DNA of 25,976 bases from a virus (IMGVR_UViG_2529293141_000017:1-25976), one strand, 5' to 3'; shown: positions 9,196-24,435, numbered from the stretch's first letter. Numbers and translations: made by a program. Notes: generated by a model from the letters alone, not told the origin.

Positions 9196-9221
9196 CGGTG
9201 TAGTTAATGGTGTAGTTAATT
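9196..9221. repeat. Candidate attL core (CGGTGTAGTTAATGGTGTAGTTAATT)
   Basis: Direct repeat of 24410-24435; lies immediately 5' of the int start. Confidence 0.55.
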
Positions 9222-9242
9222 GTGATGACCGGATTCAAAATT

Positions 9243-10472
9243 ATGAGCAGAGCACTTAACAAACTGAGCGATACACAGCTGAGGAAAATCAACGGCACAC
9301 CCGCCCAAAAAACAGCCTTTCTTAATGACGGTGGAAACCTGAGCGTCAGGCATTCAACCAGTGGCCTTTTAACCTGGTATTTCACTTACAGGGCCGGAAC
9401 GGGAAGGGGGGCACCACCGGAACGCATTAAGCTGGGAAATTATCCTGATCTGAGCCTGAAATCAGCCAGGGAAAAAGCCGCCCAGTGTCGCGCATGGCTG
9501 GCAGAGGGGAAAAATCCACGTCATGAAATGAATTACACCGTACAGGAAGCGTTAAAGCCGGTAACGGTTGGCGATGCGCTCACCTACTGGCTTGAGTCGT
9601 ACGCAAAGGAAAACCGTGTGGATTATGACCCACTGAAAAAGCGGCTAAATAATCACGTAATACAGCACATTGGCCCTATGCCGCTGGATAAATGCGAGCT
9701 ACGGCACTGGCTGACCTGTTTTGATCGGGTGGCAAAGAAAGCCCCTGTTTCCGCCGGGTTCCTGCTACAGACATGCAAGCAGGCGCTTAAGTTCTGCAGG
9801 AAGCGGCGCTATGCAATCAGCAACGTTCTTGATGATATGAGTGTGGCGGACGTTGGGAAAAAACCGGATATAAGTGAGCGTGTCTTAAGTAACAAAGAAC
9901 TTGGCGAATTATTGCAGGCACTGGACAAAAAAATATTTTCCCCTTACTACGTCGCACTAATCCGCCTCCTGATTGTTTTCGGATGCCGGACAGTAGAACT
10001 GAGGTTATCGGAGATCGGCGAGTGGGATTTTACCGAAATGCTCTGGACCGTTCCGAAGGAGCACAGCAAAACGAAGGTAGCCATATTCCGGCCCATACCG
10101 GAAGCGATACTGCCGTTCGTCACGCAGCTGGTGGAGCAGAACAGGCACACGGGCTTATTGCTGGGGGAAGTGAAACAGGAAACCAGCGTATCGCAGTACG
10201 GCAGATTGGTGCACAGGAGGCTTAAACACCCTCACTGGTCACTGCATGACATCCGGCGCACCTTTACAACCATGCTGAACGATTTAGGCGTTGATCCTCA
10301 CGTCGTGGAGCAGCTTACAGGCCACCAGATGCCAGGAATGCAACGCGTGTACAACCATTCCCGCTATATTGATGCGAAACGCAATGCGCTTGATATGTGG
10401 GTGGAGCGGTTGGAGATACTGGCGGGAACACATGAAAACGTAACCACGCTACCAGTAACCAGAATAAAATAA
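9243..10472 (+). CDS. int: Tyrosine integrase (P4-type)
   Basis: N-terminal LSDTQLRKI...NDGGNLSV...WYFTYR arm-binding-like region, and a C-terminal catalytic region with HDIRRTF and a terminal RY...H. Alternative ATG at 9222. Confidence 0.88.
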   Translation: MSRALNKLSDTQLRKINGTPAQKTAFLNDGGNLSVRHSTSGLLTWYFTYRAGTGRGAPPERIKLGNYPDLSLKSAREKAAQCRAWLAEGKNPRHEMNYTVQEALKPVTVGDALTYWLESYAKENRVDYDPLKKRLNNHVIQHIGPMPLDKCELRHWLTCFDRVAKKAPVSAGFLLQTCKQALKFCRKRRYAISNVLDDMSVADVGKKPDISERVLSNKELGELLQALDKKIFSPYYVALIRLLIVFGCRTVELRLSEIGEWDFTEMLWTVPKEHSKTKVAIFRPIPEAILPFVTQLVEQNRHTGLLLGEVKQETSVSQYGRLVHRRLKHPHWSLHDIRRTFTTMLNDLGVDPHVVEQLTGHQMPGMQRVYNHSRYIDAKRNALDMWVERLEILAGTHENVTTLPVTRIK

Positions 10473-10846
10473 TTTTTTTCGTGTTTTTTCAGTATGCGCA
10501 TACTGGATAAGTGCACAGATACAACGTGAAACAATGTGCAATAACGTGACACAATCACGAACAAGAGGCCAAAAAGAATACAGATTTATAAGTTACTGAT
10601 TTTTAATGCTCAGCTGGTTTTTTATACATTAGTGAATTACGCGTTAAAGCGTGCGAAAAAAGGCATAAAACAAGATTTTATGCCTTTGTATTAACATGAA
10701 TTTAAATGATTTTATCCTGATTATTCCTCTTTCTGTAAACCATGCGACACCAACATTTGCCAACTCTGAATCATCCTGACACAATCAGACACATCCCAAC
10801 GCAATAGAACACGAAATAACTCTTTAAGAAACGAAAGGGGGCAATA

Positions 10847-11035
10847 GTGTTAAGCACTGATCGGTTTATACGTGAAAAAGAATGCGAAAAGCTAACAGGC
10901 CTTAGCCGCTCATGCCGCTACCGCCTGGAAAAGGCCGGACAATTCCCATCACGTCGTAAACTTGGCGGGCGTTCTGTTGGCTGGTCTTTATCTGAGGTTT
11001 TGGCCTGGAAGGATAGCTGCAAGGCAGTTCACTAA
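10847..11035 (+). CDS. alpA: AlpA-family (MerR/Xis-like) transcriptional regulator
   Basis: 62 aa with LTGLSRS..YRL...FP..RKLGGRSVGW, matching the AlpA pattern. GTG start with an AAGGGGG Shine-Dalgarno. Confidence 0.75.
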   Translation: MLSTDRFIREKECEKLTGLSRSCRYRLEKAGQFPSRRKLGGRSVGWSLSEVLAWKDSCKAVH

Positions 11036-11215
11036 AAAGACTGGCGGCACACAGCCACCACCAATCCATTATTGACCGATACCGGGATCTCGGTATCGGG
11101 AATAAACGCCATAATACTGAGGTATAACCATGATGAAATATACGCCCGTACAGGGGCGGGGATTCGTTCGCCCTGGTGAATCTGAAAAGCCATGCTATAG
11201 GGTATTTTCAGGCAT

Positions 11216-11243
11216 AAAAAAAGCGGTCCCGATATGGAACCGC
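11216..11243 (-). terminator. Rho-independent terminator for the minus-strand repressor cassette
   Basis: On the minus strand: GGCGGTTCC atatc GGGACCGC followed by T7. Confidence 0.45.
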
Positions 11244-11311
11244 CTTTCTGAACAATTAACCCGCTGCGCCGTATGTGTCAACAATCATAAGCCCGAACAT
11301 GATAACCGTGA

Positions 11312-11515
11312 TCAGGCTGGTGGGCAATTACCTTGCTTGTTGGGGCCGTATTGTGCTGCCATTTTCATCCGTTCAGAACGTGAATATTTTTTTAGAAACT
11401 CATCAAGGACAAAAGCGCATGGAGCGAATCTTTCTGATTCATGCTCGAGCGCCATATTTTCGTGCTCTCTGTTCGTTTTTTGCGATGGTGTATTGGTTGA
11501 TTCTTTATTGGTCAT
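11312..11515 (-). CDS. Hypothetical small protein (67 aa), second gene of repressor cassette A
   Basis: Paralogue of 12028-12255: shared MTN start and a conserved C-terminal F-x-L-D/E-x-F-x-K-Y-x-R motif. It is followed by a terminator. Confidence 0.45.
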   Translation of the reverse strand: MTNKESTNTPSQKTNREHENMALEHESERFAPCAFVLDEFLKKYSRSERMKMAAQYGPNKQGNCPPA

Positions 11516-11572
11516 TGTGTGTACCTGTAAAGCAATGCGCCGTAGTACCTCACGCCACGGCGCTGATAGTAA

Positions 11573-11752
11573 TTATTCTGATTCTTTGGCCTTGCGGCGC
11601 TGGCGGCGTTTGATCTCGCCTTTTGCTGCCGTAACTAGAAATCCGGCGGTACTTTCGCCAGGTTCTTTAAGTTGCTCAATATCGGTCATTACCTCATGCG
11701 GGATTCTGACCGTTGTCATTTGTGATTTTGCGTTCTTTGCACCTGTTGCCAT
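11573..11752 (-). CDS. Ribbon-helix-helix DNA-binding protein (59 aa), candidate island repressor, copy A
   Basis: Own translation MATGAKNAKSQMTTVRIPHEVMTDIEQLKEPGESTAGFLVTAAKGEIKRRQRRKAKESE, with a beta-strand / helix / helix pattern. AGGAGA Shine-Dalgarno 7 nt upstream. Divergent from a plus-strand promoter and operators. Confidence 0.55.
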   Translation of the reverse strand: MATGAKNAKSQMTTVRIPHEVMTDIEQLKEPGESTAGFLVTAAKGEIKRRQRRKAKESE

Positions 11753-11771
11753 TTCTGGTTCTCCTGATAAT

Positions 11772-11864
11772 CGGTGTATTTCAGTATACGCAAAAAAAAG
11801 ATAAAAAAAGTCTTGCGGTGTATTTCACCTGAATGTAGATTTAAAAATGAAGGTGAAATACACC
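11772..11864. promoter_or_regulatory. Operator/promoter region A: GGTGTATTTCACC in three copies, two forming a perfect 13-bp inverted pair
   Basis: 11817-11829 and 11852-11864 are exact reverse complements; a third direct copy lies at 11772-11783. The region sits between divergent genes. Confidence 0.45.
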
Positions 11865-11938
11865 CAAAACAACAACGCCCCGCAGTGATGGGAACACATA
11901 CGGGGCGTCTAACCAAACCATTAATTGAGGTAACGATT

Positions 11939-12010
11939 ATGGCTATAAAAGAGCATAGCTTACTCTTTATACACACACAAACGCCCCGGAAACGGAATAA
12001 TCCGTTTCAT
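11939..12010 (+). pseudogene. Truncated 5' remnant of an Icd-like gene (paralogue of 12685-12879)
   Basis: MAIKEHSLLFIHTQT... shares the M-x-x-x-H-x-x-x-L-x-HTQT start with 12685, then loses similarity where cassette B begins. Confidence 0.35.
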
Positions 12011-12027
12011 AGTTCGGTTTTGTGCAC

Positions 12028-12255
12028 TCATCCTGGCGGTCGGTTTTTGCCGGATTTAAGCCGCCGTGGGTATTTATCGACAAAATCTTCAAGGGCAAAT
12101 TTTTCTGGTGGCACTAAGCGCGGCGCTGGTGGTGGTATTTTTGTTCTGGTTAGTTCTTCCTCAACTCTGGCGCAGGCTTCTGACTGCCTTTGCCGGATGA
12201 TTTCATCATCTTGCGTTTGCGTGTCTTGTATTGGTGATAGTGTGTTGTTGGTCAT
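12028..12255 (-). CDS. Hypothetical small protein (75 aa), second gene of repressor cassette B
   Basis: Paralogue of 11312-11515, same position in the cassette. Confidence 0.5.
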   Translation of the reverse strand: MTNNTLSPIQDTQTQDDEIIRQRQSEACARVEEELTRTKIPPPAPRLVPPEKFALEDFVDKYPRRLKSGKNRPPG

Positions 12256-12312
12256 GATACTGCCCTGTAAAGCAATGCGCCGTAGTACCTCACACCACGG
12301 CGCTGATAGTGA

Positions 12313-12492
12313 TTATTCTGATTCTTTGGCCTTGCGACGCTGGCGGTATTCAACTTCCCGCTTTAATGCAGCTGTAACAAACTGCCCTGTACTTTCGCCG
12401 GGCATTTTTACCGCCTCAACATTGTTCATAACTTCATGTGGAACCCTTGCCGCAACTGTTTGTGATTTTGCGTTTACTGCTTTTGTCGCCAT
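12313..12492 (-). CDS. Ribbon-helix-helix DNA-binding protein (59 aa), candidate island repressor, copy B
   Basis: MATKAVNAKSQTVAARVPHEVMNNVEAVKMPGESTGQFVTAALKREV.... GAGGGG Shine-Dalgarno upstream. Divergent from the replication operon. Confidence 0.6.
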   Translation of the reverse strand: MATKAVNAKSQTVAARVPHEVMNNVEAVKMPGESTGQFVTAALKREVEYRQRRKAKESE

Positions 12493-12542
12493 GTTGAGCA
12501 CCCCTCATAAAAAACAAATGCAGTATGCAGGAAAAAAAACAA

Positions 12543-12594
12543 GTGTTCAACACTTGACGTGTTTAACACCTCGATTTAAATTGGTGTTCAACAC
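12543..12594. promoter_or_regulatory. Operator/promoter region B: three GTGTT(C/T)AACAC palindromes overlapping a TTGACG-N17-TAAATT promoter
   Basis: Palindromes at 12543, 12559 and 12584 bracket the -35 and -10 of the plus-strand promoter feeding 12685 onward. Confidence 0.5.
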
Positions 12595-12684
12595 CTTATT
12601 TAGGCAAGGTGTAGAAACGACGAAACCCCGCACTGTAGGAGCAGTAACGGGGCTTCTAACCAACAACGTAAACGAGGAGCCGTT

Positions 12685-12879
12685 ATGGTTGCCGTAAATC
12701 ATATACCACACCTTGTACACACACAAACGGCCTTTGTGTGGCGTTTTCTGGCACTGAGTGCCGGAGAATCTCAAATCATCCACGTAACCGCCTGGACGGA
12801 ACGCGAAGCGCGTAACCTTTGCCCGTCCGGTTGTGTTGCTGTATTTGCCGCCCGTATTCGCCAGGGGGTAGGCTTATGA
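12685..12879 (+). CDS. Small protein, possibly Icd-like (host cell division inhibitor family); first gene of the early operon
   Basis: 64 aa with a GAGGAG Shine-Dalgarno. The motif FVWRFLALS...TEREAR...FAARI resembles Icd-like proteins of P4-type elements, from memory only. Confidence 0.5.
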   Translation: MVAVNHIPHLVHTQTAFVWRFLALSAGESQIIHVTAWTEREARNLCPSGCVAVFAARIRQGVGL

Positions 12880-13109
12880 GCCAGGAAATCACACTACAAC
12901 AGGCAGCAGAACGCGCCCACCAAATCGAAGTTATTTGCGCACTGGCAGAGGATTACCCTGGCATGATGACCGACAGCGAATCAGGGGCAATCATCGGCTT
13001 ACTTAAACGCCTTAGCGGTGAGGTCTGCGTATTCCTGAGCGATGAACAGGAAAGAAGAACGCTTATTTCTAACGAAAAAAAATGCGGAGGGGTACACCAT
13101 GTGCAATAA
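12876..13109 (+). CDS. Hypothetical protein (77 aa)
   Basis: ATG overlaps the upstream stop (ATGA); GGGGGT Shine-Dalgarno; translationally coupled. Confidence 0.5.
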   Translation: MSQEITLQQAAERAHQIEVICALAEDYPGMMTDSESGAIIGLLKRLSGEVCVFLSDEQERRTLISNEKKCGGVHHVQ

Positions 13110-13341
13110 CATCCGTCCGGACGCAGCCGCCGCCGCACTCACTACGCTGATGCACGCGCTTATTGATATTGAATGCACGGCAGAGCTTGCACAAAAGGAA
13201 GAACGGGAGGAATACACATTGTTCGCCCTGGAATGTATCCGATACACCGCCACGCGGTCGCTGAATGACGCTAAAAATATTCTTGTTGCAGATTGTGAAA
13301 ATGGGGGGGGGTTATGCGTGATGATCGTTTTAATTCCCTGA
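13099..13341 (+). CDS. Hypothetical protein (80 aa) with a G9 tract near its 3' end
   Basis: GGAGGGG Shine-Dalgarno before ATG 13099; overlaps the neighbouring genes. Confidence 0.45.
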   Translation: MCNNIRPDAAAAALTTLMHALIDIECTAELAQKEEREEYTLFALECIRYTATRSLNDAKNILVADCENGGGLCVMIVLIP

Positions 13342-13547
13342 AACAAGAATTTTCCGGCGTTCCTGATGATGCGGCTGATGCGCTTTCGTCAATGCCAGAA
13401 CTTATTAGAGCGGCTTTTTTCTTACTTTCCACGAGAGAATATAAATCAACGGGGCTTGATGTACTGAATATCGCCGCCGATTATGCGGAATATGTGGCAG
13501 AGGCGCGTTACAGAAGAAAATTTCCTGAGGATGTAAGCCATGCGTGA
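13314..13547 (+). CDS. Hypothetical protein (77 aa)
   Basis: ATG directly after the G9 tract, which serves as its Shine-Dalgarno; operon context. Confidence 0.5.
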   Translation: MRDDRFNSLKQEFSGVPDDAADALSSMPELIRAAFFLLSTREYKSTGLDVLNIAADYAEYVAEARYRRKFPEDVSHA

Positions 13548-13773
13548 TATTTACCACGAAACAACAGAACGCGTATTTCTTGCACTTTCTCACAGTGAAA
13601 ACATGCTGGAAATATTGCGCATATGGCTTGAAACACTTGGCGACAATGAACGCGACAAACAAAAATCAAGAATTGTCACGGCATTAATAACGCTTCTTGA
13701 GCCTGTAATAATGGAACTACAAGAAATAGAGACATTGCACGACAGATATAACGAACAGCACACCGGAGAATAA
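13540..13773 (+). CDS. Hypothetical protein (77 aa)
   Basis: Start overlaps the upstream stop (ATGCGTGA); operon context. Confidence 0.5.
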   Translation: MRDIYHETTERVFLALSHSENMLEILRIWLETLGDNERDKQKSRIVTALITLLEPVIMELQEIETLHDRYNEQHTGE

Positions 13774-13778
13774 AAATA

Positions 13779-14078
13779 ATGAAACTTAAATATTCTGGCT
13801 TAACTGCCAGTGGCAACACTCACCCTAAATTTACGCGCGGTGATATTTACCGCGACCAGTACGGCGGTACGGTAATGATTAAGGGCGTGGCGGGACGGTG
13901 CGTAACTTACCGCCGTGAAGGTTACGAATATGATTGCGTGATGCCTGTTTATCAGTTCCGGCGTGATTTTTCTCTGGTACAGACCGCGCCGCATAACGTG
14001 CCCACCAGCAGGGAGAAAGCACGCGCCAATATTCAGAAGATGAAAAACATGATTAACGGATTCAGGGGCAAGAAATGA
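13779..14078 (+). CDS. Hypothetical protein (99 aa), translationally coupled to the helicase gene
   Basis: Stop overlaps the helicase ATG (ATGA). Confidence 0.55.
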   Translation: MKLKYSGLTASGNTHPKFTRGDIYRDQYGGTVMIKGVAGRCVTYRREGYEYDCVMPVYQFRRDFSLVQTAPHNVPTSREKARANIQKMKNMINGFRGKK

Positions 14079-15472
14079 AAAGCGCACCGAACTTAAAAAA
14101 ACAGCCTTACGACAAGATGACCGAAGTCATCATTTTTGCGGGTAGTGATGCGTGGGCACATGCGAAACAGTGGCAGGAACAGGACGGGCGACTGGCTGGC
14201 GATAATGTGCCTCCCATTGTGCTGGCTGATGATCAACTGGATGAACTGGCAGACCTGAGAATCATCGACGAGGGGCGCTATTGTGTCCGGCTGTACAAGG
14301 CAGGCCACATCAGGCCATCAAATATTAATGCCATTGCGCACAAGCTGGCGGCGGCGGGCGTAACTGATGCGAATTATTACCCCGAAGGGATACACAGCCA
14401 GAAGCGGGAGAACTGGCGCGAATATCTGGAACGGGAGCGGGGGAAAAAGCCAGGGGAAGAACACCACCAGCGAAAAACCACGCTACCGATGAGCGTTGGA
14501 TCTGCCGGATACGACACGCAATTAGATTACGTGGTAAAGGGGATTATTCCGGCATCGTCGCTTTGCAGCATATACGGGGCGAGCGGTTCCTATAAATCAT
14601 TCCTTGCGGGTTCGTGGGCGTGTCACGTTTCCACGGGCCGCCAGTGGGGAGGCCGCAGGGTGGCGCATGGCGCTGTTCTCTATGTGGTTGGTGAAGGCGG
14701 TATCGGCGTTCCGCGTCGTGTAAAAGCCTGGGAGGTTGTGCACGGTGAGCAGGTGAAAAATCTGTATCTGGTAAACCGTCCCATCTTTCCGGCGGTCCCG
14801 CTTGATGTTGATGAAATGGTTATCGCTGCCCGTCAGGTGGAGCGGGAAACGGGTAAACCTGTACGCATGATTATTCTGGATACGCTGGCGCGTTGCTTTG
14901 GTGGGAATGATGAAAATGATTCCCGTGATATGGGGGCGTTTATCCGTGGTTGTGACGAACTGAAACGACGCACAGGGGCCACGGTGCTGGTGGTTCACCA
15001 TTCCGGCAAGGATGAGACGAAAGGCGCGCGCGGTTCCAGTGCATTTCGTGCATCACTGGATGCTGAATACCGGATACGCAGGGAGGACGCAGGAAGCGAA
15101 GCGCTGGTTATCTCATGCACCAAAATGAAGGACGCGGAGGAACTCAAAGAAGCCGCATATGACTTACGCGTGGTGGAGCTGTTTACCGACGCTGACGGGG
15201 AGTTAATCACGTCGCTGGTGGTGGTGGATAAGCCGCGCCCTCCCGTTGAACTGGAGCGCATCGAGGAGGCAGGCAACAAGACGGAAAACCATACCGCACT
15301 ATGGGGGTGCATCCGTTCACGCACACAGAACGGCGACAAGTGCACGATCCCGCTGTTACGTGATGACATGAAACGGCTTGGGTATGACGTGAAAAATATG
15401 CGGCGATGGTTAGCCAAACTGGAAAAAGACGCCGTGATTTACATTGATGGTGATGATGTAGGACCACTGTAA
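14075..15472 (+). CDS. Replicative ATPase/helicase (RecA-fold, RepA/AAA_25-like) with an N-terminal domain of unknown role
   Basis: Walker A GASGSYKS, Walker B-like ILDTLARCFGG, and VVHHSGKD...GARGSSA motifs. Confidence 0.8.
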   Translation: MKSAPNLKKQPYDKMTEVIIFAGSDAWAHAKQWQEQDGRLAGDNVPPIVLADDQLDELADLRIIDEGRYCVRLYKAGHIRPSNINAIAHKLAAAGVTDANYYPEGIHSQKRENWREYLERERGKKPGEEHHQRKTTLPMSVGSAGYDTQLDYVVKGIIPASSLCSIYGASGSYKSFLAGSWACHVSTGRQWGGRRVAHGAVLYVVGEGGIGVPRRVKAWEVVHGEQVKNLYLVNRPIFPAVPLDVDEMVIAARQVERETGKPVRMIILDTLARCFGGNDENDSRDMGAFIRGCDELKRRTGATVLVVHHSGKDETKGARGSSAFRASLDAEYRIRREDAGSEALVISCTKMKDAEELKEAAYDLRVVELFTDADGELITSLVVVDKPRPPVELERIEEAGNKTENHTALWGCIRSRTQNGDKCTIPLLRDDMKRLGYDVKNMRRWLAKLEKDAVIYIDGDDVGPL

Positions 15473-15672
15473 AAAGTGAGTAGCAAAAGTGAGTAATGAT
15501 GAGGTTTTTACAAAATATTAACACGATTACTCACTTTCTCACCTGTATACATGCTCAAAAGTGAGGAGTAAAAAAATCATTATGAAACATACACATAAAG
15601 CATCAAAAAATATCAAGTGAGACGAAGCGAGACGCTTTAAAAAGTGAGGTGTAAAAGTGAGCATGAGTGAGG
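15473..15672. repeat. Iteron array (AAAGTGAG, at least 7 direct and 1-2 inverted copies) with an AT-rich spacer: candidate island replication origin
   Basis: Copies at 15473, 15486, 15530 (inverted), 15558, 15615, 15641 and 15654, immediately 3' of the helicase gene. Confidence 0.55.
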
Positions 15673-15926
15673 AGATAACCAAAATGCGCAGAGACAGAAC
15701 AGGGCCGAAATATAAAGCGTTAGACATGACAGAGCACGCCTTAAAGGTGGCAATCAGGGTAATAGACCGCCACGCGGGGGAAGGATACGCGAAAGCACAT
15801 CCCGAACTGATAAGCGCATTCATGACCACGACGGCGGCAAATTTTGCCACGCTGACAGAGCGGGAGATTGCCGAAGCGGAACAGGTAACAACCATCAACG
15901 TTAAAACCGGAGAGGTGGAATCATGA
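15663..15926 (+). CDS. Hypothetical protein (87 aa)
   Basis: ORF begins inside the last iterons; its stop overlaps the next ATG. Confidence 0.4.
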   Translation: MSEEITKMRRDRTGPKYKALDMTEHALKVAIRVIDRHAGEGYAKAHPELISAFMTTTAANFATLTEREIAEAEQVTTINVKTGEVES

Positions 15927-16228
15927 GCGAACCAAAATTTGGTGAAAAATTTTACAAGCACAACGGACGGATCACGATTCTGCAAATAAGCGCAGCTACA
16001 CCAGGCTGGTGGGTTGAAACAGACGAAGGATCCTCACCCGTGGCATCATGGGCGCTTTGTGTGCTTAGTTACCCTGACCGCGATGTGTATCAGGATATTC
16101 TGCCTGTGATATCCACTGACAAAGGCATGAAACCCGTAGACATCAAAAACATGGGGTTTCAGTGCGTAATGCTCACTGAAAAAATGATGGAAGAGATGAA
16201 AAAGAACAATGCCGGATCGCTTCACTGA
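15923..16228 (+). CDS. Hypothetical protein (101 aa)
   Basis: Coupled ORF upstream of ssb. Confidence 0.5.
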   Translation: MSEPKFGEKFYKHNGRITILQISAATPGWWVETDEGSSPVASWALCVLSYPDRDVYQDILPVISTDKGMKPVDIKNMGFQCVMLTEKMMEEMKKNNAGSLH

Positions 16229-16237
16229 GGTGGCAAT

Positions 16238-16648
16238 ATGACAGCACAAATTGCAGCTTACGGGCGGCTGGTGGACGACCCGCAGGTAAAACAGAGCAGC
16301 AAGGGCACACCGATGACTCTGGCGCGTATGGCGGTATCGTTGCCATGCAGCCAGGCACATGACGGACAGGCGACGTTATGGTTATCGGTTATCGCATTTG
16401 GCAAACAGGCCGATTTCCTGGCTAAACATCAAAAAGGCGATGTTGCCAGCGTATCCGGCACGATGCAGGTAAGCCAGTGGACCGGACAGAACGGGGAAAC
16501 GCGGCGGGGGTATCAGGTTATTGCAGACAGCGTAATCAGTGCCCGCGCGGCACGTCCAGGCGGGAACAGACGCAAAACCACAGGCACACAGGGTAATCAG
16601 CCACCAGCGGGAGGCGATGACCCTTACGGTGACGGTATTCCGTTCTGA
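16238..16648 (+). CDS. ssb: Single-stranded DNA-binding protein
   Basis: OB-fold-like N-terminal region, a Gly/Pro/Gln-rich linker, and an acidic C-terminal tip DDPYGDGIPF (compare DDDIPF of SSB). Confidence 0.8.
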   Translation: MTAQIAAYGRLVDDPQVKQSSKGTPMTLARMAVSLPCSQAHDGQATLWLSVIAFGKQADFLAKHQKGDVASVSGTMQVSQWTGQNGETRRGYQVIADSVISARAARPGGNRRKTTGTQGNQPPAGGDDPYGDGIPF

Positions 16649-17211: not shown

Positions 17212-18369
17212 ATGCCGAGAATAATCGAATTACGCCAGCAGAAAACCGCCATTAAAAATCAGATGCGCGACATGCTGGAGAACGCTGAAAAAGAAAACCG
17301 CAGTCTTAACGATGCTGAGGGCGCAAAATTTGACGAATTACGCGCTAAAGCTGAATCCCTCGATAAAGACATTTCCCGCCTTGAAGCCATTGCAGACGAA
17401 GAGCGCAGCAAGCCAGGTAAAAGCAGTCAGACCACTGACCCCGCAGAACTACGAAACTACATTCTGACGGGTGAAACCCGCGCATTAAGTACAGGCGTTC
17501 CCGCTGATGGTGGTTATACCGTTATCCCCGAACTGAACACCGAAATCATGCGAATGCTGACGGATGAATCCACCATGCGCCGCATCTGTACCGTGAAGAA
17601 AATCAGCAGCAACGAGTTTAAGCAGCTTGTTTCCGCTGGCGGTGCGACCGTTAACCACGGTGAAGAGGGTAAGGCACGCGAACAGACCAGCACCCCGCAG
17701 ATTAACGAGGTGAGCATTAAGCTGTATCCGGTCTATGCGTACCCGCGCACCACACAGGAAATCGTGGATTTTTCCGATGTGGACATCCTTTCATGGCTGA
17801 CGGGTGAGATTGGCGACACCTTCACGGAAACCGAAGAAAGCGATCTGGTTGTGGGCGACGGTGACAAAAAAGCAAAAGGTTTTTTATCCGTACCCCGTGC
17901 AGAGAAGAACGACAAAGAGCGTGATTTTGGTACGTTGCAGGTAATTAAACCTTCCGAATCTCTGGCGTGGACATCTGCGGACCCGTTGATCGACCTGAAA
18001 TTTGCATTACGTAAAAAATACCGCAAAAACGCGGTCTGGGTGGTTAACTCCACGACGGCGGCAAAACTTCAGAAGGTGAAGAACGCGAACGGTGATTACA
18101 TCTGGCGCGACCGTTTACAGGCGGGTGATCCTGATACGTTGCTGGGCCTTCCGGTCGAATATCTGGAGTTTATGCCTGATAACGTTATTGCCCTGGGTGA
18201 CTTCAAACGCGGTTACTACATTGTTGATCACGAAACAGGTGTTCGCACCAGACCGGACAACCTCACAGAGCCGGGCTTCATCAAAATTTTCACGCAGAAA
18301 TATTTAGGCGGTGGCGTGGTGGATTCGAACGCGATCAAGATTCTGGAACTGCCACAGGACGACGATTAA
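17212..18369 (+). CDS. Major capsid protein (HK97 fold)
   Basis: Coiled-coil delta-domain-like N-terminus, ~385 aa, followed by a prohead protease gene. The TTG at 17167 is rejected because it would read through the hairpin. Confidence 0.88.
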   Translation: MPRIIELRQQKTAIKNQMRDMLENAEKENRSLNDAEGAKFDELRAKAESLDKDISRLEAIADEERSKPGKSSQTTDPAELRNYILTGETRALSTGVPADGGYTVIPELNTEIMRMLTDESTMRRICTVKKISSNEFKQLVSAGGATVNHGEEGKAREQTSTPQINEVSIKLYPVYAYPRTTQEIVDFSDVDILSWLTGEIGDTFTETEESDLVVGDGDKKAKGFLSVPRAEKNDKERDFGTLQVIKPSESLAWTSADPLIDLKFALRKKYRKNAVWVVNSTTAAKLQKVKNANGDYIWRDRLQAGDPDTLLGLPVEYLEFMPDNVIALGDFKRGYYIVDHETGVRTRPDNLTEPGFIKIFTQKYLGGGVVDSNAIKILELPQDDD

Positions 18370-18423
18370 CAGCATACAGAAGGGGCTTAAAAGCCCCTTT
18401 AGTGTTTTATGGGTGAAAAAATT

Positions 18424-18981
18424 ATGAAGAGTATGGAAATCCGGTCATCGGAAATCACCACCAGCGGAGCCGGTACGCTGACGGGCTACGTTGTTCGCTG
18501 GGATAAGCTTTCAGAACTGTTATGGGGTGAGTTTTACGAAAAATTCCAGCGGGGAGCGTTTACTGAATGGCTTGCAGCGGGTAATGACGTTCGCGGCCTG
18601 TATGAGCATGACCACAGTATGTTACTGGGGCGTACCCGTTCCGGCACGCTGAAACTGGAAGAGGACGAAACAGGGTTACGCTTTGAACTGACCCCACCGG
18701 ATACCAGCACAGGGCGGGACGTTATCGAACTGGTTAAACGTGGTGATATATCCGGCATGAGCTTTGGCTTTCGTTCCCGTAAGGATGTATGGGATACCAC
18801 AACAGATCCATGCGTGCGCACCGTGCTGGTGGCGGAACTGTACGAAATTACCGTTACATCCGTTCCGGCTTACCCTGATTCCGGCGTGGAGCTGGCCCGC
18901 CGTTCCCTGTATGAGCAGCACCCCGAAAAAATGCCGCGTGCGGATAATCGCCGCTGGTGGGTGGATTTAGCGGGGGTGTGA
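18424..18981 (+). CDS. Prohead maturation protease (HK97-family)
   Basis: Position between capsid and portal genes, and size. Alternative ATG at 18409. Confidence 0.8.
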   Translation: MKSMEIRSSEITTSGAGTLTGYVVRWDKLSELLWGEFYEKFQRGAFTEWLAAGNDVRGLYEHDHSMLLGRTRSGTLKLEEDETGLRFELTPPDTSTGRDVIELVKRGDISGMSFGFRSRKDVWDTTTDPCVRTVLVAELYEITVTSVPAYPDSGVELARRSLYEQHPEKMPRADNRRWWVDLAGV

Positions 18982-18982
18982 T

Positions 18983-20194
18983 ATGTGGCCTTTCAGAAGA
19001 AAAAAAGAGCAGCGCAGCATGACGCTTGATGAATTTATGGCGCTGGCTGGCACATCGAACACGGGGGCGGGTGAGTACGTATCATCGGGGACAGCGGAAT
19101 CACTGCCCGCCGTCATGAACGCCGTCACGGTCATCTCTGAGGCGGTGGCTACCATGCCGTGTTACCTGTACCTGGTACGCAATGAGAAGGGGAAGGAGGC
19201 CCGCGAGTGGCTTGATTCTCATCCGGTCGATCACATCCTCAACGAGCGCCCGAACGCATGGCAAACCCCCTACCAGTTTAAGCGAATGATGATCCGCCAC
19301 TGCCTGTTAAACGGTAATGCTTATGCGGTGATTCAGTGGGGGCGTGATGGTTTTCCGGCGGCTTTACATCCTTACCCGCCGCAGTCGGTGAACGTGGAGC
19401 AGACAGGCGAACACAACTGGCGCTACTGCATCACTGACGCCTACACCGGAAACACCCGCAACTATTTACCGTGGGAAGTACTTCACCTTCGTTACTCCAC
19501 GGATGACGGCTTTATGGGGCGCTCACCTGTAACCATCTGCCGCGAATCGCTGGGGCTTGGGCTGGCCCAACAACGCCACGGCGCGAGCGTGATGCGTGAT
19601 GGCATGATGGCGGCAGGGGTTATCACGTCAGGCGAATGGCTGGACGGCGTGAAGGGCAAACAGGCATTAGCCGCACTGGAACGCTACAAAGGGGCCAGAA
19701 ACGCCGGAAAAACGCCCATCCTTGAAGGGGGGATGAGCTATCAGCAGCTGGGCATGAGTAATCAGGATGCTGAATGGCTGGCCTCCCGTCGCTTCACCAT
19801 TGAAGACATCGCCCGAATGTTCAACGTCTCGCCGATTTTTTTGCAGGAATACAGCAACAGCACCTACAGCAATTTCAGCGAGGCAAGCCGCGCATTTCTC
19901 ACCATGACGATGCGCCCGTGGCTGGCGAACTTTGAGCAGCAGATAAAAAACGCCCTGCTGGTGGCCTCGCCTGTACCTGGTATCCGGTATCAGGTGGAGT
20001 TTGACAGCGCGGACCTGTTACGGGCCACACCTGGCGAACGCTTTGCCACCTATGAGCGCGGCATCAAATCCGGCGTTATGTGCCCGAACGAAGCCCGCGA
20101 ACGTGAAGGACTGTCACCGCGTGATGGTGGTGATGAGTTCAGTCAGGCATGGAAACAGGAAGTAAAAATCAGCGAGGGAGAAAAACCGGAATGA
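18983..20194 (+). CDS. Portal protein
   Basis: 403 aa immediately downstream of the protease, with a GGGGG Shine-Dalgarno. Confidence 0.88.
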   Translation: MWPFRRKKEQRSMTLDEFMALAGTSNTGAGEYVSSGTAESLPAVMNAVTVISEAVATMPCYLYLVRNEKGKEAREWLDSHPVDHILNERPNAWQTPYQFKRMMIRHCLLNGNAYAVIQWGRDGFPAALHPYPPQSVNVEQTGEHNWRYCITDAYTGNTRNYLPWEVLHLRYSTDDGFMGRSPVTICRESLGLGLAQQRHGASVMRDGMMAAGVITSGEWLDGVKGKQALAALERYKGARNAGKTPILEGGMSYQQLGMSNQDAEWLASRRFTIEDIARMFNVSPIFLQEYSNSTYSNFSEASRAFLTMTMRPWLANFEQQIKNALLVASPVPGIRYQVEFDSADLLRATPGERFATYERGIKSGVMCPNEAREREGLSPRDGGDEFSQAWKQEVKISEGEKPE

Positions 20195-20529
20195 ACATAG
20201 GGCGACTGCGTGACAGGATAACGATTCAGACCCTGAAACAGACCAGAGCCATGACGGGCGAAATACTCGAAACGTGGGAGGACGGTCACACACTCTGGGC
20301 AAGCGTGAACATGATCAGCAGCAAGGAGGCCATTTCATCGGGCGCAGAGCTGGCGATTGGTACCGTAAGGATCTGGATACGGTACCGGAAGGACATCAAC
20401 GCCACCAGCCGGATAAAGGTCAGTACGGGGCCGCTGGCGGGGCGTGTACTGAATATCATCGGGCAGCCGTTGCCGGATGTCGCCAGGACACGCCTTGAAA
20501 TTCTTTGTCGTGAGGGCGCGGAAAAATGA
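20191..20529 (+). CDS. Head-tail adaptor / head closure protein
   Basis: Small coupled ORF after the portal gene (ATGA overlap); the longer start at 20149 is rejected. Confidence 0.55.
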   Translation: MNIGRLRDRITIQTLKQTRAMTGEILETWEDGHTLWASVNMISSKEAISSGAELAIGTVRIWIRYRKDINATSRIKVSTGPLAGRVLNIIGQPLPDVARTRLEILCREGAEK

Positions 20530-20822
20530 CAGAAGAACTTATCACCCTGGAAGAAGTGAAACTCCATTGCCGTATCGATGGAGACGAGGAAGACCAGTTA
20601 ATCAGCGGATACATTGCCGCATCGCTTGAGGCGTGCCAGATACACATAGGCAGGCGCTTTGATGACGGGCTGGAGTTCACGCCAGCCATAAAGATTGGCT
20701 GCATGATGTTTATCGCTCACCTGTATGAGAATCGCCAGATTGTCGCGGATAACGCAAAAACACGCGTACCCATGACGATTGGCGCACTCTGGACGGCTTA
20801 CCGTGATGTGGGGGTGTACTGA
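20526..20822 (+). CDS. Head-tail connector (gp6-like)
   Basis: 98 aa, coupled, in the typical position. Confidence 0.55.
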   Translation: MTEELITLEEVKLHCRIDGDEEDQLISGYIAASLEACQIHIGRRFDDGLEFTPAIKIGCMMFIAHLYENRQIVADNAKTRVPMTIGALWTAYRDVGVY

Positions 20823-21262
20823 TGCCGTGGCAACCATTAAGACGATGCACAGAACCAGGCTGTAACAGGCGCGTTAAATCCGGCAAGTGTGAAGAGCACA
20901 GGCGGGCGGCATGGCGTGCAGAGGATGCCAGACGAGGACACCGCCGCGCGCGTGGATATTCCAGACAGTGGGACAAATACCGCGCCATGTATCTGAGTAA
21001 AAACCCGTTATGCGTGCGATGCCTTGAGAAGGGGATATATACGCCCGCCGTGGTGGTGGATCACATTATCCCGATTAATGGCGGTGATGATGTTCTCTTC
21101 TGGCCCGAATGGAACCATCAACCATTGTGTCAGGCGTGTCATAACCAGAAAACGAAATGGCTTGATCCGGCAACAAAAAGCAAGCGTGCCGCAGGTGGAT
21201 TTCGTGAAGAGGAAGAACGGGCCGCTAACCGCAATAACTGGATGTATGACGCTGATGAATGA
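20822..21262 (+). CDS. HNH endonuclease (terminase-associated)
   Basis: Cys-rich N-terminus and DHIIP...N.QPLC..CHN.KT HNH motif; located just upstream of terS. Confidence 0.85.
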   Translation: MPWQPLRRCTEPGCNRRVKSGKCEEHRRAAWRAEDARRGHRRARGYSRQWDKYRAMYLSKNPLCVRCLEKGIYTPAVVVDHIIPINGGDDVLFWPEWNHQPLCQACHNQKTKWLDPATKSKRAAGGFREEEERAANRNNWMYDADE

Positions 21263-21431
21263 GCGGGAACAAAACCGCCTTATCCGTGGACTTATAAGGC
21301 AGCGTGACGCATGGAAGACACAGGAAACAGGGCATAAAGATAAAGCGTCAGGACGTGCAGAACGCATCACAGCGAAGCGATTAACCGACCGTGACCGCGA
21401 GGTTATGGAATGTTTCCGCAATCGCTGGTGA
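21255..21431 (+). CDS. Candidate small basic protein (58 aa) overlapping the HNH stop
   Basis: Own translation MNEREQNRLIRGLIRQRDAWKTQETGHKDKASGRAERITAKRLTDRDREVMECFRNRW; the ATG overlaps the HNH stop by 8 nt. Confidence 0.3.
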   Translation: MNEREQNRLIRGLIRQRDAWKTQETGHKDKASGRAERITAKRLTDRDREVMECFRNRW

Positions 21432-21552
21432 TGCTGTATGACGGGGTGGGGGGGCGTTTTCAGGACAAACCCGACCCCGCCGGGCACCGAACGCCTCCTC
21501 AAATTTTTATGCACGGGAATTTTTTGAAAAATAATCTGGCGAAAAAATAAGC

Positions 21553-21909
21553 ATGGCAAGACCACCGAAAGCCCCCGCCTACCTGGATGATATCGCCGTG
21601 AAGCAGTGGCGGGAAAAATCGCGGCAGCTTGCGGAACGGGGTGACCTGACCCCCGCCGACTGGAGTAATCTGGAACTGTATTGCGTCAATTACTCGATAT
21701 ACCGGAAAGCCGTCGCAGACCTTGCGGCGCGCGGGTTCAGCATTGTTAACAGTCAGGGCGGAGAGAGCAGAAACCCCGCATTAAGCGCGAAATCCGACGC
21801 GGAAAGAGTGATGATAAAAATGGCCTCCTTGCTCGGTTTTGACCCGATAAGCCGCCGTAAAAATCCACCGGAAACAGAAGAAGAGGACGAGCTTGACCGC
21901 CTGGAATAA
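21553..21909 (+). CDS. terS: Terminase small subunit (P27-family-like)
   Basis: MARPPKAPAYLDD... N-terminus; overlaps the terL start. Confidence 0.75.
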   Translation: MARPPKAPAYLDDIAVKQWREKSRQLAERGDLTPADWSNLELYCVNYSIYRKAVADLAARGFSIVNSQGGESRNPALSAKSDAERVMIKMASLLGFDPISRRKNPPETEEEDELDRLE

Positions 21910-23554
21910 GTACGCAGAAGACGTAAAAACGGGCAAAATTCCGGCCTGTAAACGGCTGAAACAGGCCGTTAAACGGTACTTTTCGGACCTTGAAAGCCCC
22001 CTTTACACGTTCGATCGTGAGGTTGTGGAGCGGTTTATTGCCTTTTCCAGGGTGTGCCCGCACGTAAAAGGGCCGATGCGTGGCAGACCCATTGAGCTGG
22101 AGCCGTGGCAGCAGTTCGCCTTTGCGTGCATCCTCGGCTTTAAGGTTAAGGCCACCGGACGGCGCAAATACACGAGCGCCTTTATCGAAGTGCCGCGCAA
22201 AAATGCGAAATCCACGACCGCCGCGATTCTGGCTAACTGGTTTCTGATTATGGAGAACGGGCAGCAGGATATTTACACCGCAGCGGTGAGCCGTGACCAG
22301 GCGCGGATCGTTTTTGATGATGCGCGTCAGATGTGCCTTTTATCCCGACCGTTACGCAGGCGGGTGAATATTCAGGCCCACAAGGTGATGCACCCGAAAA
22401 GCAACAGCCTGTTAAAGCCGCTGGCAGCAAAAGCGGCAACCATCGAGGGAACAAACCCCAGCCTTTCCATCGTGGACGAATACCACCTACACCCCGATAA
22501 CGGCGTTTATTCCGCGCTTGAGCTGGGGATGGGCGCACGTCCCGAAGGGCTGTTATTTGCCATTACCACATCGGGCAGTAACGTCGTTTCAACCTGTAAA
22601 CAGCACTATGATTATTGCTGCCAGATCCTGGACGGCGAAGAGGTCAACGATTCAATTTTTGTGCTGATTTACGAGCTGGACGACGAAAACGAGGTTGATG
22701 ATCCGGCGATGTGGATAAAGGCTAACCCTAACATCGATGTTTCCGTGGATCGTGAAAAACTGGCCTCAACCATCCAGAAAGCGCGGGGTATTCCGTCGCA
22801 ATGGGTGGAGATGATGACAAAGCGATTTAATATCTGGTGCCAGGGGGCTACCCCGTGGATGGGTAACGGCGCATGGGCTGAGTGTGCCGGAACGTTCACG
22901 GAGGAAGATTTACACGGGCAGGAGTGTTACGCGGGGCTGGACTTATCATCAACCAGCGATATTTCCAGCGTGTGCTATGCCTTTCCGGTCGGTAAAAATA
23001 TCATGCTGGTTTCCCGTCATTATCTGCCGGAGTTCCAGCTACAGAACCCCGCCAATAAAAACCGCGCTGTCTATCGCCAGTGGGCTAAAGCGGGCTGGAT
23101 ACGCACAACGCCAGGTGACTGCATTGATTACGACCGGATCAGAGATGACATCATGCAGGATGCGGAGAAATTTAATATCAGGCTGGTGGGCTTTGATACG
23201 TGGAACGCCACGCATCTCAGGACGCAATTACAGGGGGCTGGTTTTGAGGTGGAGCCGTTCCCGCAAACCTACCTCAGATTCAGTCCGGCGGCGAAATCGT
23301 TCGAAGTTTTTGTTAACCGCAGGGTGATTGTGCATCGTGGCGATCCGGTGTTGTCCTGGTCGATGAGTAACGTCGTGATGCAGAGTGACGCGAACGCCAA
23401 TATCAAGCCGAACAAGAAAAAATCACCGAACAAGATAGACCCGAGCGTGGCGGCGCTGATGGCGTTTGGTACATTCCAGGCAGAGCATGAGGATTTTGCT
23501 TTTGATATAAGCGACAGCCACCGCCAGAAACTGGAAGAATTTAGCGGGGTGTAA
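21893..23554 (+). CDS. terL: Terminase large subunit
   Basis: 553 aa with ATPase motifs (VPRKNAKST; LSIVDEYH) and a nuclease-like C-terminal region. Confidence 0.9.
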   Translation: MTAWNKYAEDVKTGKIPACKRLKQAVKRYFSDLESPLYTFDREVVERFIAFSRVCPHVKGPMRGRPIELEPWQQFAFACILGFKVKATGRRKYTSAFIEVPRKNAKSTTAAILANWFLIMENGQQDIYTAAVSRDQARIVFDDARQMCLLSRPLRRRVNIQAHKVMHPKSNSLLKPLAAKAATIEGTNPSLSIVDEYHLHPDNGVYSALELGMGARPEGLLFAITTSGSNVVSTCKQHYDYCCQILDGEEVNDSIFVLIYELDDENEVDDPAMWIKANPNIDVSVDREKLASTIQKARGIPSQWVEMMTKRFNIWCQGATPWMGNGAWAECAGTFTEEDLHGQECYAGLDLSSTSDISSVCYAFPVGKNIMLVSRHYLPEFQLQNPANKNRAVYRQWAKAGWIRTTPGDCIDYDRIRDDIMQDAEKFNIRLVGFDTWNATHLRTQLQGAGFEVEPFPQTYLRFSPAAKSFEVFVNRRVIVHRGDPVLSWSMSNVVMQSDANANIKPNKKKSPNKIDPSVAALMAFGTFQAEHEDFAFDISDSHRQKLEEFSGV

Positions 23555-23567
23555 TGAGGTCAGCAGC

Positions 23568-23849
23568 ATGACAGAAGCCGAAATACTGCGATTAATCCGC
23601 CGCGTCTCTGGAATCAGCCAGCAGGCTGACGAACAGACCACGCAGCCGGACAGCGTGACAGCCGAAAATTATGCGCGTGTTGTTGCTGAGGTGATGCGCC
23701 GTGATGGTATCCAGCTTAATGATGCGGATATGCGCGACATACGGATCCGCGTTCTGGAAATGCTGGCCTACAATCGCCGCGTTGAACTGTATCGGGAGAA
23801 GGAGAAAATCACGTACCACTGGAAGAAGCCGGAGCGGTTACGGCGGTAA
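23568..23849 (+). CDS. Hypothetical protein (93 aa), last gene of the packaging operon
   Basis: GAGG Shine-Dalgarno; followed by a terminator at 24052. Confidence 0.5.
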   Translation: MTEAEILRLIRRVSGISQQADEQTTQPDSVTAENYARVVAEVMRRDGIQLNDADMRDIRIRVLEMLAYNRRVELYREKEKITYHWKKPERLRR

Positions 23850-23963
23850 CTTGTTGATTAAAAGGCGGCTCAATTCTGAGCTGGGTAGCTGACGGCGGTA
23901 ACTGTTTTATATTCCCGATAGCGCAAAAATGCGCGGTCGGGCAGAATGACCACCACCTCAATC

Positions 23964-23998
23964 GTGACGGAGAGTGACAACCAGTGACACACCGTGAC
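23964..23998. repeat. Four GTGAC motifs phased at exactly 10 bp: candidate protein-binding array
   Basis: GTGAC at 23964, 23974, 23984 and 23994. Confidence 0.5.
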
Positions 23999-24051
23999 AA
24001 AAAGACGGTTTAACCGTTCATTAAAAATCGACGTGATTTTGTGCTATCAGG

Positions 24052-24075
24052 ATGACGTGGCCAACGTCATTTTTT
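24052..24075 (+). terminator. Rho-independent terminator
   Basis: ATGACGT ggcca ACGTCAT followed by a T-run. Confidence 0.5.
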
Positions 24076-24107
24076 AGCGAAAAATTCTGATTAAGGTCAC
24101 TGGCTGA

Positions 24108-24233
24108 ATGGTCATAATGACCACGCAGACCATCGAGGCAACCATAGCGATCATCGTTACGGTTGGAGCTTTTCCGCCATTGGTGGAAAAGGTGCACATC
24201 TGGATCATCATTACGGTGATCAAGGGTATGTAA
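24108..24233 (+). CDS. Candidate 41-aa hydrophobic peptide
   Basis: Own translation MVIMTTQTIEATIAIIVTVGAFPPLVEKVHIWIIITVIKGM. Weak Shine-Dalgarno; not in the provided ORF track because it is under 60 aa. Confidence 0.2.
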   Translation: MVIMTTQTIEATIAIIVTVGAFPPLVEKVHIWIIITVIKGM

Positions 24234-24409
24234 AACCCACCAGCCTGATTAAATGTTAACCGGAAAAAAAATCCGGTAGCCCCGTTATGGGGATCCCCAT
24301 ATCGACATTAACGCCCCTCATGAATTGGTGCGCTTCCCCCTGGAAAGATTACCCGCCTGTATATTTCTTGTGTCTATTTGTTCCACGTTGTTTCATACAG
24401 TGCACCGAA

Positions 24410-24435
24410 CGGTGTAGTTAATGGTGTAGTCAATT
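24410..24435. repeat. Candidate attR core (CGGTGTAGTTAATGGTGTAGTCAATT)
   Basis: 25/26 identical to 9196-9221, in direct orientation. Confidence 0.55.

Follow-up and report, generated by a model that had tools for sequence, protein, structure and literature searches.

Identification of the DNA between roxA and phoQ in a viral record as, most probably, an intact capsid-forming phage-inducible chromosomal island of the EcCIEDL933 lineage

Results and discussion

Identity of the insert

In the viral record IMGVR_UViG_2529293141_000017:1-25976, whose whole length of 25,976 nucleotides is called the window here, approximately 15.4 kb of non-core DNA parts roxA (ycfD) from phoQ when the sequence is aligned with that of Escherichia coli K-12. 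This insert is almost certainly an intact capsid-forming phage-inducible chromosomal island (cf-PICI) of the EcCIEDL933 lineage, known also as O-island 51, CP-933C or Sakai Sp7, at the roxA-phoQ attachment site attB. The element is already known; what the window holds is one mosaic allele of a satellite that is well characterised and sits here at its canonical site. O-island 51 (CP-933C, Sp7) was placed between ycfD and phoQ by Flockhart et al. (PMC3378721), and the O157 element was later renamed EcCIEDL933 and made the prototype of the cf-PICIs by Alqurainy et al. (10.1101/2022.09.08.507074). A reading of the window made from its sequence only had also arrived at a cf-PICI, which is borne out by the attB and core shared with EcCIEDL933 and by packaging proteins 97-100% identical to those of that element. 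The novelty which that reading implied is not borne out, the element having been annotated as CP-933C, OI-51 or Sp7 since the O157 genome papers; in Sakai the region carries the label 'prophage Sp7; untypable'.

The criteria for a cf-PICI include a size of approximately 10-15 kb (Alqurainy et al.), int at the left end and an alpA of the canonical Gram-negative PICI type, an own Rep with iterons, the gene order capsid, protease, portal, connectors, hnh, terS and terL, and the absence of tail and lysis genes. All of these features were found in the insert, and its size of 15,446 bp was taken to agree with the first, the prototype being 15.4 kb long. The features of a complete temperate HK97-like prophage were not found, since tail, tape-measure, lysis and CI/Cro switch genes are absent between the att cores and the flanks are roxA and phoQ.

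Insertion site and limits of the element

By aligning the window with K-12 MG1655, the limits of the insert can be set to the base. In K-12, roxA and phoQ are adjacent with a spacer of 75 bp, as the sequence-only reading had held for reference E. coli, whereas the window runs from the end of a prophage through potB, potA, pepT and roxA to the insert and then phoQ. K-12 positions 1-2318 align with window 6754-9071 and positions 2309-3777 with window 24508-25976; each block shows 99.9% identity, with an overlap of 10 bases between the two. Because K-12 homology stops at 9071 and restarts at 24508 with this 10-base overlap, the insert spans 9072-24517 (15,446 bp). Its flanking direct repeat is the 10-bp core GGACATATTT, whose left copy (attL, 9062-9071) lies at the end of K-12 homology and whose right copy (attR, 24508-24517) overlaps the phoQ stop codon (24516-24518). 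The core repeat restores this stop codon, and phoQ remains at 486 aa; roxA also stays intact. The core is common to the window element, EDL933, Sakai and JNE120393, and the limits of the Sakai 'Sp7' feature agree with those derived from the junctions. The 26-bp direct repeats that had been taken as the bounds are real (25 of 26 positions identical) but internal, so the earlier coordinates 9196-24435 fell short by approximately 125 bp at the left end and 82 bp at the right end. In K-12 itself, attB (2309-2318) reads GGGCATATTT, while attL and attR read GGACATATTT in all four lysogens examined; this difference reflects either an attB polymorphism or an identity segment that carries the island's base on both sides.

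Among 5,426 complete E. coli genomes, the roxA-phoQ junction is uninterrupted in 4,822, the whole element is present at a coverage of at least 80% in 63, and the packaging module is present in 413. The possibility that the same segment is core DNA in K-12-like genomes, which had been named as a test of the satellite reading, does not hold, as the alignment finds it absent from K-12 and the survey from 89% of the complete genomes. The attB is also that of EcCIEDL933 and EcCICFT073, a further criterion being that the site is one not used by prophages; in two sampled genomes with an interrupted junction, a small sample, a classical PICI and an IS5 element were found, and a prophage in neither. 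In the second of these situations, strain LP5-1 (L009 17269-18249), the spacer holds the IS5-like ISKpn26 and no satellite. A search for tRNA genes gave nothing, and the island is therefore not tRNA-targeting.

The element also occurs at other attachment sites, namely tqsA in strain 10 and gcd-hpt in ATCC 43886.

Head and packaging operon

Gene assignments were drawn from Pfam, PHROGs and NCBIfam. The integrase, AlpA, the replicative ATPase, SSB and the HK97-type head and packaging genes, all of which had been read from the sequence before, were matched in Pfam, and the iteron array noted beside the ATPase gene is real as well. The rightward head and packaging operon begins with an HK97-fold major capsid protein of 385 aa (17212-18369, plus strand; Phage_capsid, 1.8e-61), which is 99.7% identical to that of EcCIEDL933 and matches PDB 9gyi chain B over all 385 residues (E 3e-256). 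It is followed on the same strand by a prohead serine protease (18409-18981; Peptidase_S78, 7e-48; 97.4% identical to EcCIEDL933) and a portal (18983-20194; Phage_portal, 2.5e-90; 99.3%). Two connector genes come next, a head closure or head completion protein of 112 aa (20191-20529; Phage_HCP, 1.1e-22; phrog_25; PDB 2kz4, E 4e-68) and a gp6-like head-tail adaptor of 98 aa (20526-20822; Phage_connect_1, 8.4e-12; phrog_40), and both are 100% identical to their EDL933 counterparts. The HNH endonuclease of an HK97-type packaging system (20822-21262; HNH, 1.8e-8; 99.3% identical to EcCIEDL933) and a conserved small open reading frame (ORF) of 61 aa (21246-21431; phrog_3173, 8e-37; 98% identical to EDL933) precede TerS of the P27/Terminase_4 family (21553-21909; 1.3e-23; 100% identical to EDL933) and TerL (21893-23554; TerL_ATPase, 2.4e-25, and TerL_nuclease, 1.6e-50; 98.2% identical to EcCIEDL933). 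The operon is followed by a conserved ORF of 93 aa (23568-23849, plus strand; phrog_1561, 1.5e-55; 93.5% identical to EDL933), which is also found in classical PICIs (it is present in L008) and is widespread on its own. The largest island gene to which no function was assigned encodes 101 aa.

The cos site probably lies in the G+C-rich region GGGGTGGGGGGG...CCCGACCCCGCCGGG at 21432-21552, just upstream of terS. This placement is suggested by the ends of the linear record of the related 16.5-kb vB_KppS-Ant: its last position corresponds to window 21466, and its first lies 22 nt before terS. A cosN of the lambda/phi80 type (GGGCGGCGACCT), as used by classical PICIs, gave no match within the island. 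The record vB_KppS-Ant (LR881103.1, 'Escherichia phage', 16,548 bp; L007) was itself deposited as a phage, and its layout and size are those of a cf-PICI; its 766-aa gene labelled 'tail length tape measure protein' stands in an accessory position after terL and may be mis-annotated cargo.

Within 9072-24517 no tail, tape-measure, baseplate, holin, endolysin or CI/Cro family was matched with Pfam or PHROG, in agreement with the sequence-only reading, and the DNA past both ends, where tail genes might have told against a satellite, consists of roxA and phoQ. That the element is instead a decayed prophage or deletion remnant is very unlikely. Its historical annotation as a prophage (Sakai Sp7; PMC3378721) speaks for such an origin, and head genes without tail genes could resemble a remnant; however, every island gene is full length relative to EDL933, and the same compact architecture recurs in the 413 genomes and at several att sites. 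The head genes also do not lie closest to an ordinary prophage, as they would in a remnant. Their nearest TerL and capsid homologues in the phage collection (58-82% identity) are found mostly in satellite-sized records of 10-16.5 kb (vB_KppS-Ant and Pasteurella Pmp7 and Pmp8), in a 3.8-kb Salmonella fragment, and in one 106.5-kb Klebsiella phage record (PQ569648) whose content was not inspected, while all other full-size phages in the collection reach at most 37-40%; close homologues thus occur in no complete phage. Finally, the near-identical element of EDL933 has been shown to excise, replicate, form small capsids and transfer (10.1101/2022.09.08.507074).

Proposed mechanism

By analogy with EcCIEDL933 and EcCICFT073, a helper phage would switch on alpA, and AlpA would then lead to Int-driven excision and to expression of the rightward operon. 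Rep would melt the iteron origin and allow the island to replicate, the island's own capsid, protease and portal would form small capsids, and its HNH-TerS-TerL system would cut and package island DNA exclusively, the cos site probably being a short way upstream of terS. Finally, the filled tail-less heads would be completed with the tails of a helper siphovirus. The alpA product is the activator required for PICI induction (PMC6092414; 10.1101/2022.09.08.507074); alpA is activated by helper phages, and its product in turn promotes its own expression (PMC6092414). In EcCIEDL933, transfer of the island is kept in helper capsid mutants and lost in helper tail mutants (10.1101/2022.09.08.507074). 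Filled capsids are released without a tail and then attach to free ones, compatibility being set by the adaptor and connector proteins, and EcCIEDL933 takes HK106 tails but not HK022 tails (10.1101/2025.02.11.637232). Because the adaptor and head-closure proteins of the window are 100% identical to those of EcCIEDL933, tails of the HK106 type are predicted to fit, and the tail preference would be that of the prototype.

Still less probable is a satellite of the classical PICI or P4-like kind, dependent on the capsid proteins of a helper and equipped with head genes that serve only to interfere with that helper. This explanation would account for a backbone (int, alpA, Rep, ssb, perC, the last ORF and both arms) that is 88-97% identical to that of the classical PICI in strain Z1323CEC0015, and for the distant P4-likeness of Int, AlpA and Rep (PMC6092414). 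On the other hand, the island encodes a complete capsid-protease-portal-connector-HNH-TerS-TerL set, and in EcCIEDL933 each gene of this packaging module is needed for transfer of the island and none for transfer of the phage (10.1101/2022.09.08.507074). In addition, Pfam, PHROG and Rfam searches of the island matched no Sid, Psu or Delta family, no P4-type RNA and no CI/C4 RNA immunity, and no lambda-type cosN was seen. A domesticated head module packaging host DNA, in the manner of a gene transfer agent (GTA), is barely credible: although the best structure matches for capsid and portal include, besides the cf-PICI capsid, those of the Rhodobacter capsulatus GTA (6tb9, 6tba), the element carries int and att sites together with a replicon of its own and a cos-type TerS/HNH system, and it is strain-variable and mobile between sites, while GTAs encode tails and are inherited vertically.

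Some points weigh against the identification of the insert as an intact cf-PICI. Excision, induction, capsid formation and transfer of the window copy are all extrapolated from EcCIEDL933, and the Rep/origin and alpA-proximal regions are unlike those of the prototype, so the inducing signal and the replication behaviour could differ. In EDL933 none of 17 resident prophages induced the island. The length of 15.4 kb is at the upper limit of the search criterion (10-15 kb), and the divergent pair of regulators expected of such islands is represented by position only.

Integration and alpA-proximal genes

At the left end lies a tyrosine integrase of 409 aa (9243-10472, plus strand, with an alternative GTG start at 9222), in which an N-terminal Arm-DNA-bind_3 domain (7.8e-18) is joined to Phage_integrase (4.7e-17). 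It is followed by alpA (10847-11035, plus strand; 62 aa; Phage_AlpA, 5e-18). Downstream, two cassettes are carried on the minus strand. Cassette 1 (11312-11752) comprises a YlcI/YnfO-family gene (11573-11752; NF041551, 3.8e-17) and a 67-aa ORF (11312-11515), with matches to phrog_949 and phrog_21027, and cassette 2 (12028-12501) comprises a second YlcI/YnfO-family gene (12313-12501; NF041551, 2.4e-16) and a 75-aa ORF (12028-12255). Cassette 2 is a diverged duplicate of cassette 1, as seen from a 125-nt repeat (11505-11629 and 12245-12369) that is 82% identical; the YlcI/YnfO paralogues are 60% identical. Both cassettes (11312-12501) are divergent from the plus-strand operon that starts at 12685 with an Icd-like gene (12685-12879; phage_ICD_like, 3.2e-18) and continues with four small ORFs of PHROG families of unknown function (12876-13109, 13099-13341, 13314-13547 and 13540-13773).

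The minus-strand genes at 11312-12501 had been described as a repressor cassette, a description that could not be upheld, since the two YlcI/YnfO copies and their small ORFs have no predicted repressor fold. No DNA-binding family was matched for YlcI/YnfO, and a ribbon-helix-helix repressor was not supported by Pfam at permissive E-values, by a PDB sequence search, by AlphaFold or by Foldseek against PDB. The AlphaFold model (pLDDT 70, the predicted confidence score) has a disordered N-terminus followed by two helices, and no Foldseek match was found. The master repressor of Gram-negative PICIs has been called unclear (PMC6092414). Two plus-strand ORFs of 224 and 307 aa at 11130-12697 were rejected as genes, their translations being rich in Cys, Ser and Arg and antisense to YlcI/YnfO genes supported by hidden Markov models.

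Whereas the window has two YlcI/YnfO cassettes downstream of alpA, there is just one in EcCIEDL933, annotated in RefSeq as an ORF of 247 aa on the other strand. This plus-strand ORF lies at L004 32169-32912 in EDL933 and is ECs_1576 (ECs1576) in Sakai; its counterpart in the window is 11130-11804. On the minus strand, EDL933 and Sakai code for a protein of 63 aa, whose matches to HicB/Arc (ribbon-helix-helix) are sub-threshold, and for one of 62 aa that is homologous to the 67-aa ORF of the window. Because this pair is syntenic with the YlcI/YnfO cassettes, the 247-aa ORF is probably an antisense artefact. PADLOC defence models run on ten small ORFs gave nothing credible. Rfam searches (the whole window at the gathering threshold, and the non-coding arms and regulatory region in E-value mode) returned only a sok RNA, located in the neighbouring prophage, and a single match regarded as noise.

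Replication module and regulatory cargo

The rightward operon continues with a DUF4222 protein (13779-14078, plus strand; 2e-23) orthologous to RgdR (ECs1581), with 81% identity to Sakai ECs_1581 and with the RGD motif retained at residues 20-22; this motif of RgdR is needed to activate the enterocyte effacement locus (LEE) (Flockhart et al., PMC3378721). The next gene encodes a 465-aa Rep initiator/helicase (14075-15472, plus strand; AAA_25, 7.9e-44; phrog_2850 and primase/helicase PHROGs), whose C-terminal part is a RepA-type AAA_25 domain with a weak match to RSF1010 RepA (PDB 1g8y). Directly after rep, at 15474-15661, lies a probable replication origin, in which seven AAGTGAG iterons (six direct and one inverted) surround an AT-rich stretch. 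The seven copies fall within 190 bp; the whole window has 11 copies against 2.1 expected, a count that none of 100 shuffles reached.

The N-terminal 122 aa of Rep are common to the 710-aa DUF927 Rep of EDL933 (68% identity), while the rest is unrelated. The shared part is window 14075-14440 against EDL933 (L004) 34038-34412, the otherwise unrelated RepA/AAA_25 and DUF927 types of Rep having one conserved 122-aa N-terminal domain. The shared N-terminus therefore places a recombination joint inside rep, with the iterons switching together with the C-terminal part. The AAGTGAG array is found also in L002 and L003, and EDL933 has TAACCCGCA iterons instead.

Downstream of the origin are two small plus-strand ORFs (15675-15926, phrog_1231, and 15923-16228, phrog_27268), the second of which, of 101 aa, is absent from EcCIEDL933 (a blastn gap at 15926-16227 against EDL933). 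They are followed on the same strand by the single-stranded DNA-binding protein SSB (16238-16648; 3.3e-16; 98% identical to EDL933) and by a PerC-family regulator homologous to PchE (16659-16907; PerC, 3.2e-35; 73% identical to EDL933/Sakai PchE). The RgdR orthologue with its intact RGD motif and the PchE-like PerC regulator are flagged here, as both influence LEE expression in enterohaemorrhagic E. coli.

Repeats and motifs in the non-coding arms

The left 26-bp repeat, composed of two copies of GGTGTAGTTAAT, lies at 9196-9221 on the plus strand and ends 21 bp before the int ATG and 1 bp before the alternative GTG; the right one is at 24410-24435. Each consists of two tandem GGTGTAGTYAAT units, and the pair forms part of a 75-nt similarity of 77%. 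They lie inside the element, 125 bp (left) and 72 bp (right) from the junctions, and no copy was found in K-12. In strain 10 (L003 4001-19575), an element 96-98% identical to that of the window is sited in tqsA, a second known PICI site, with the core ATAACAGCA. The tandem units at both ends of this variant are GGTGTAGTCACT in place of GGTGTAGTTAAT; the substitutions in its Int are concentrated in the first 60 residues (the arm-binding domain), and its AlpA is identical. Because the units co-vary with the N-terminal domain of Int, the 26-bp repeats are probably arm-type binding sites of Int that flank the core in attP. The joint change of arm repeats and Int N-terminus in strain 10 is a natural specificity switch.

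A second motif, TTGTTYCACGTTGT, of 14 bp, has seven copies in the window at no more than two mismatches (0.5 expected), all of which lie in non-coding DNA of the island and some of which form 10-bp phased tandems. The motif scan placed three in the left arm on the plus strand (9101, 9154 and 9164, within 9101-9177, the last two being 10 bp apart), two inverted copies on the minus strand in the int-alpA spacer (10521 and 10541, within 10521-10554), one late copy (TTGTTCCACGTTGT) on the plus strand upstream of the capsid gene and past a terminator-like hairpin (16981-16994), and one copy (TTGTTCCACGTTGT) in the right arm (24378-24391). The sites are conserved in EDL933, Sakai, L002 and L003. In the classical PICI L008 the copies of the arms and of the int-alpA spacer are present and the late copy is missing, and ATCC 43886, whose int and alpA are different, has the late copy only and no end copies. 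The motif may be a site for a regulator or an excision factor. Its assignment as an AlpA box is attractive but ambiguous because of the late copy in ATCC 43886. If TTGTTYCACGTTGT were the AlpA operator, then excision, auto-activation of alpA and switch-on of the capsid operon would be physically coupled. Speculatively, and with doubt prevailing, the phased TTGTTYCA/TTGTTYCACGTTGT motif could be an operator on which AlpA or some partner of it acts, and the minus-strand YlcI/YnfO cassette could, separately, be the missing repressor of Gram-negative PICIs.

Upstream of the packaging operon (16930-16995, plus strand), the terminator-like hairpin (16930-16947) is followed by a conserved element made of TTTTGTAAATTATTTGT and TTGTTCCACGTTGT. 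The 17-nt block TTTTGTAAATTATTTGT (16957-16973) stands approximately 240 bp upstream of the capsid gene, next to the late TTGTTYCACGTTGT copy. It is invariant in four cf-type elements (the window, EDL933 at L004 37869, L006 10257 and L007 12057), one of which comes from a Klebsiella-derived record, while the capsid genes of the same four share no more than 65-80% identity. The classical PICI L008, which occupies the same site, lacks the 14-nt core of the block, TGTAAATTATTTGT.

The right non-coding arm (23850-24507) is composed of a variable part (23858-24106) and a conserved part that holds TTGTTCCACGTTGT and the right 26-bp repeat; it has no Rfam match. A hydrophobic ORF of 49 aa (MITVMMIQ...VTMIAMVASMVCVVIMTI...; 24074-24223, minus strand) with a promoter-like site at 24234-24207 lies in this otherwise non-coding arm. 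No family matched this ORF, which may be spurious.

Neighbouring prophage and significance

The left end of the window (1-4350) is the right end of a lambdoid prophage in potC. It carries the C-terminal receptor-binding domain of GpJ (1-918), the sok antitoxin RNA (970-1128; Rfam, 62.9 bits), an Stf-like side tail fibre (1401-2801) and a DUF4376 tail-fibre assembly protein (3351-3707). A siphovirus-type tail donor is present 5 kb from the island, with potB, potA, pepT and roxA in between, and the same arrangement of potC prophage and island is seen in EDL933 and Z1323CEC0015. The idea that the island is part of a larger prophage was rejected, the tail genes at 1-3700 belonging to this separate prophage, four core genes away.

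As a discovery the element carries little weight, since its family, chromosomal site, capsid structure and transfer mechanism have been published, and near-identical copies are present in dozens of RefSeq genomes. The position beside the PhoPQ virulence regulon, in which the sequence-only reading saw interest, was published in 2011 together with the effect of the island on LEE (PMC3378721). Owing to that RgdR/LEE work and to the PchE homology, the link between island and virulence regulation, like the phoPQ position, is already in the literature. What the present analysis adds to annotation is the exact att limits and the placement of the 26-bp repeats as internal, probable arm sites.

Comparison with known systems

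Satellite P4 resembles the window element in its Arm-DNA-bind_3 integrase, its small AlpA/Vis-like helix-turn-helix protein, its Icd-like gene and its dependence on a helper; P4 differs from the island in lacking genes for a capsid, a portal and a terminase, and relies on the capsid of P2, which Sid resizes, and on the cos site of P2. HK97-like siphoviruses, such as the helper HK106, share with the island an HK97-fold capsid, an S78 protease, a portal, a gp6-like adaptor and HNH-dependent TerS/TerL cos packaging. In contrast to them, the island has no tail, lysis or CI/Cro genes, is one third of their genome size and shows at most 40% protein identity to full-size phages of the collection.

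Classical PICIs at the same attB include EcCICFT073 (CP073-3) and the element of strain Z1323CEC0015. The latter is 94.5% identical to the window over int-alpA, 89% over Rep and origin, 92% over ssb-perC, 88.5% over the last ORF and 97% over the right arm, and differs essentially only in the packaging module. Classical PICIs have a 3.7-kb module (a capsid homologue, a decoration protein and a TerS-like gene) and rely on the helper for capsids and terminase; in its place, the window element has a self-sufficient head and packaging operon of 6.6 kb.

EcCIEDL933 (EDL933, 15.4 kb) has the same roxA/ycfD-phoQ attB, 10-bp core, arm repeats and gene order as the window element. The proteins of the two are 95% (Int), 98% (AlpA), 98% (SSB) and 97-100% (head and packaging set) identical, and DNA identity is 94% from the left flank through int and alpA (4174-11579), 97.6% across the entire packaging operon (16925-23858) and 97% from 24106 to the end of the window. 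The differences are as follows: a 465-aa RepA/AAA_25 Rep with AAGTGAG iterons against a 710-aa DUF927 Rep with TAACCCGCA iterons, the second YlcI/YnfO cassette, the extra 101-aa ORF, the more divergent RgdR (81%) and PchE (73%), and also the variable stretch at 23858-24106. Relative to EcCIEDL933, alleles that also occur in classical PICIs at the same site have taken the place of the prototype's replication module and of the stretch downstream of alpA. Since the backbone alleles, including Rep and origin, are found in the Z1323CEC0015 PICI, the window element is a mosaic of known modules, and it documents the exchange of Rep/origin and alpA-proximal cassettes between classical PICIs and cf-PICIs at one site.

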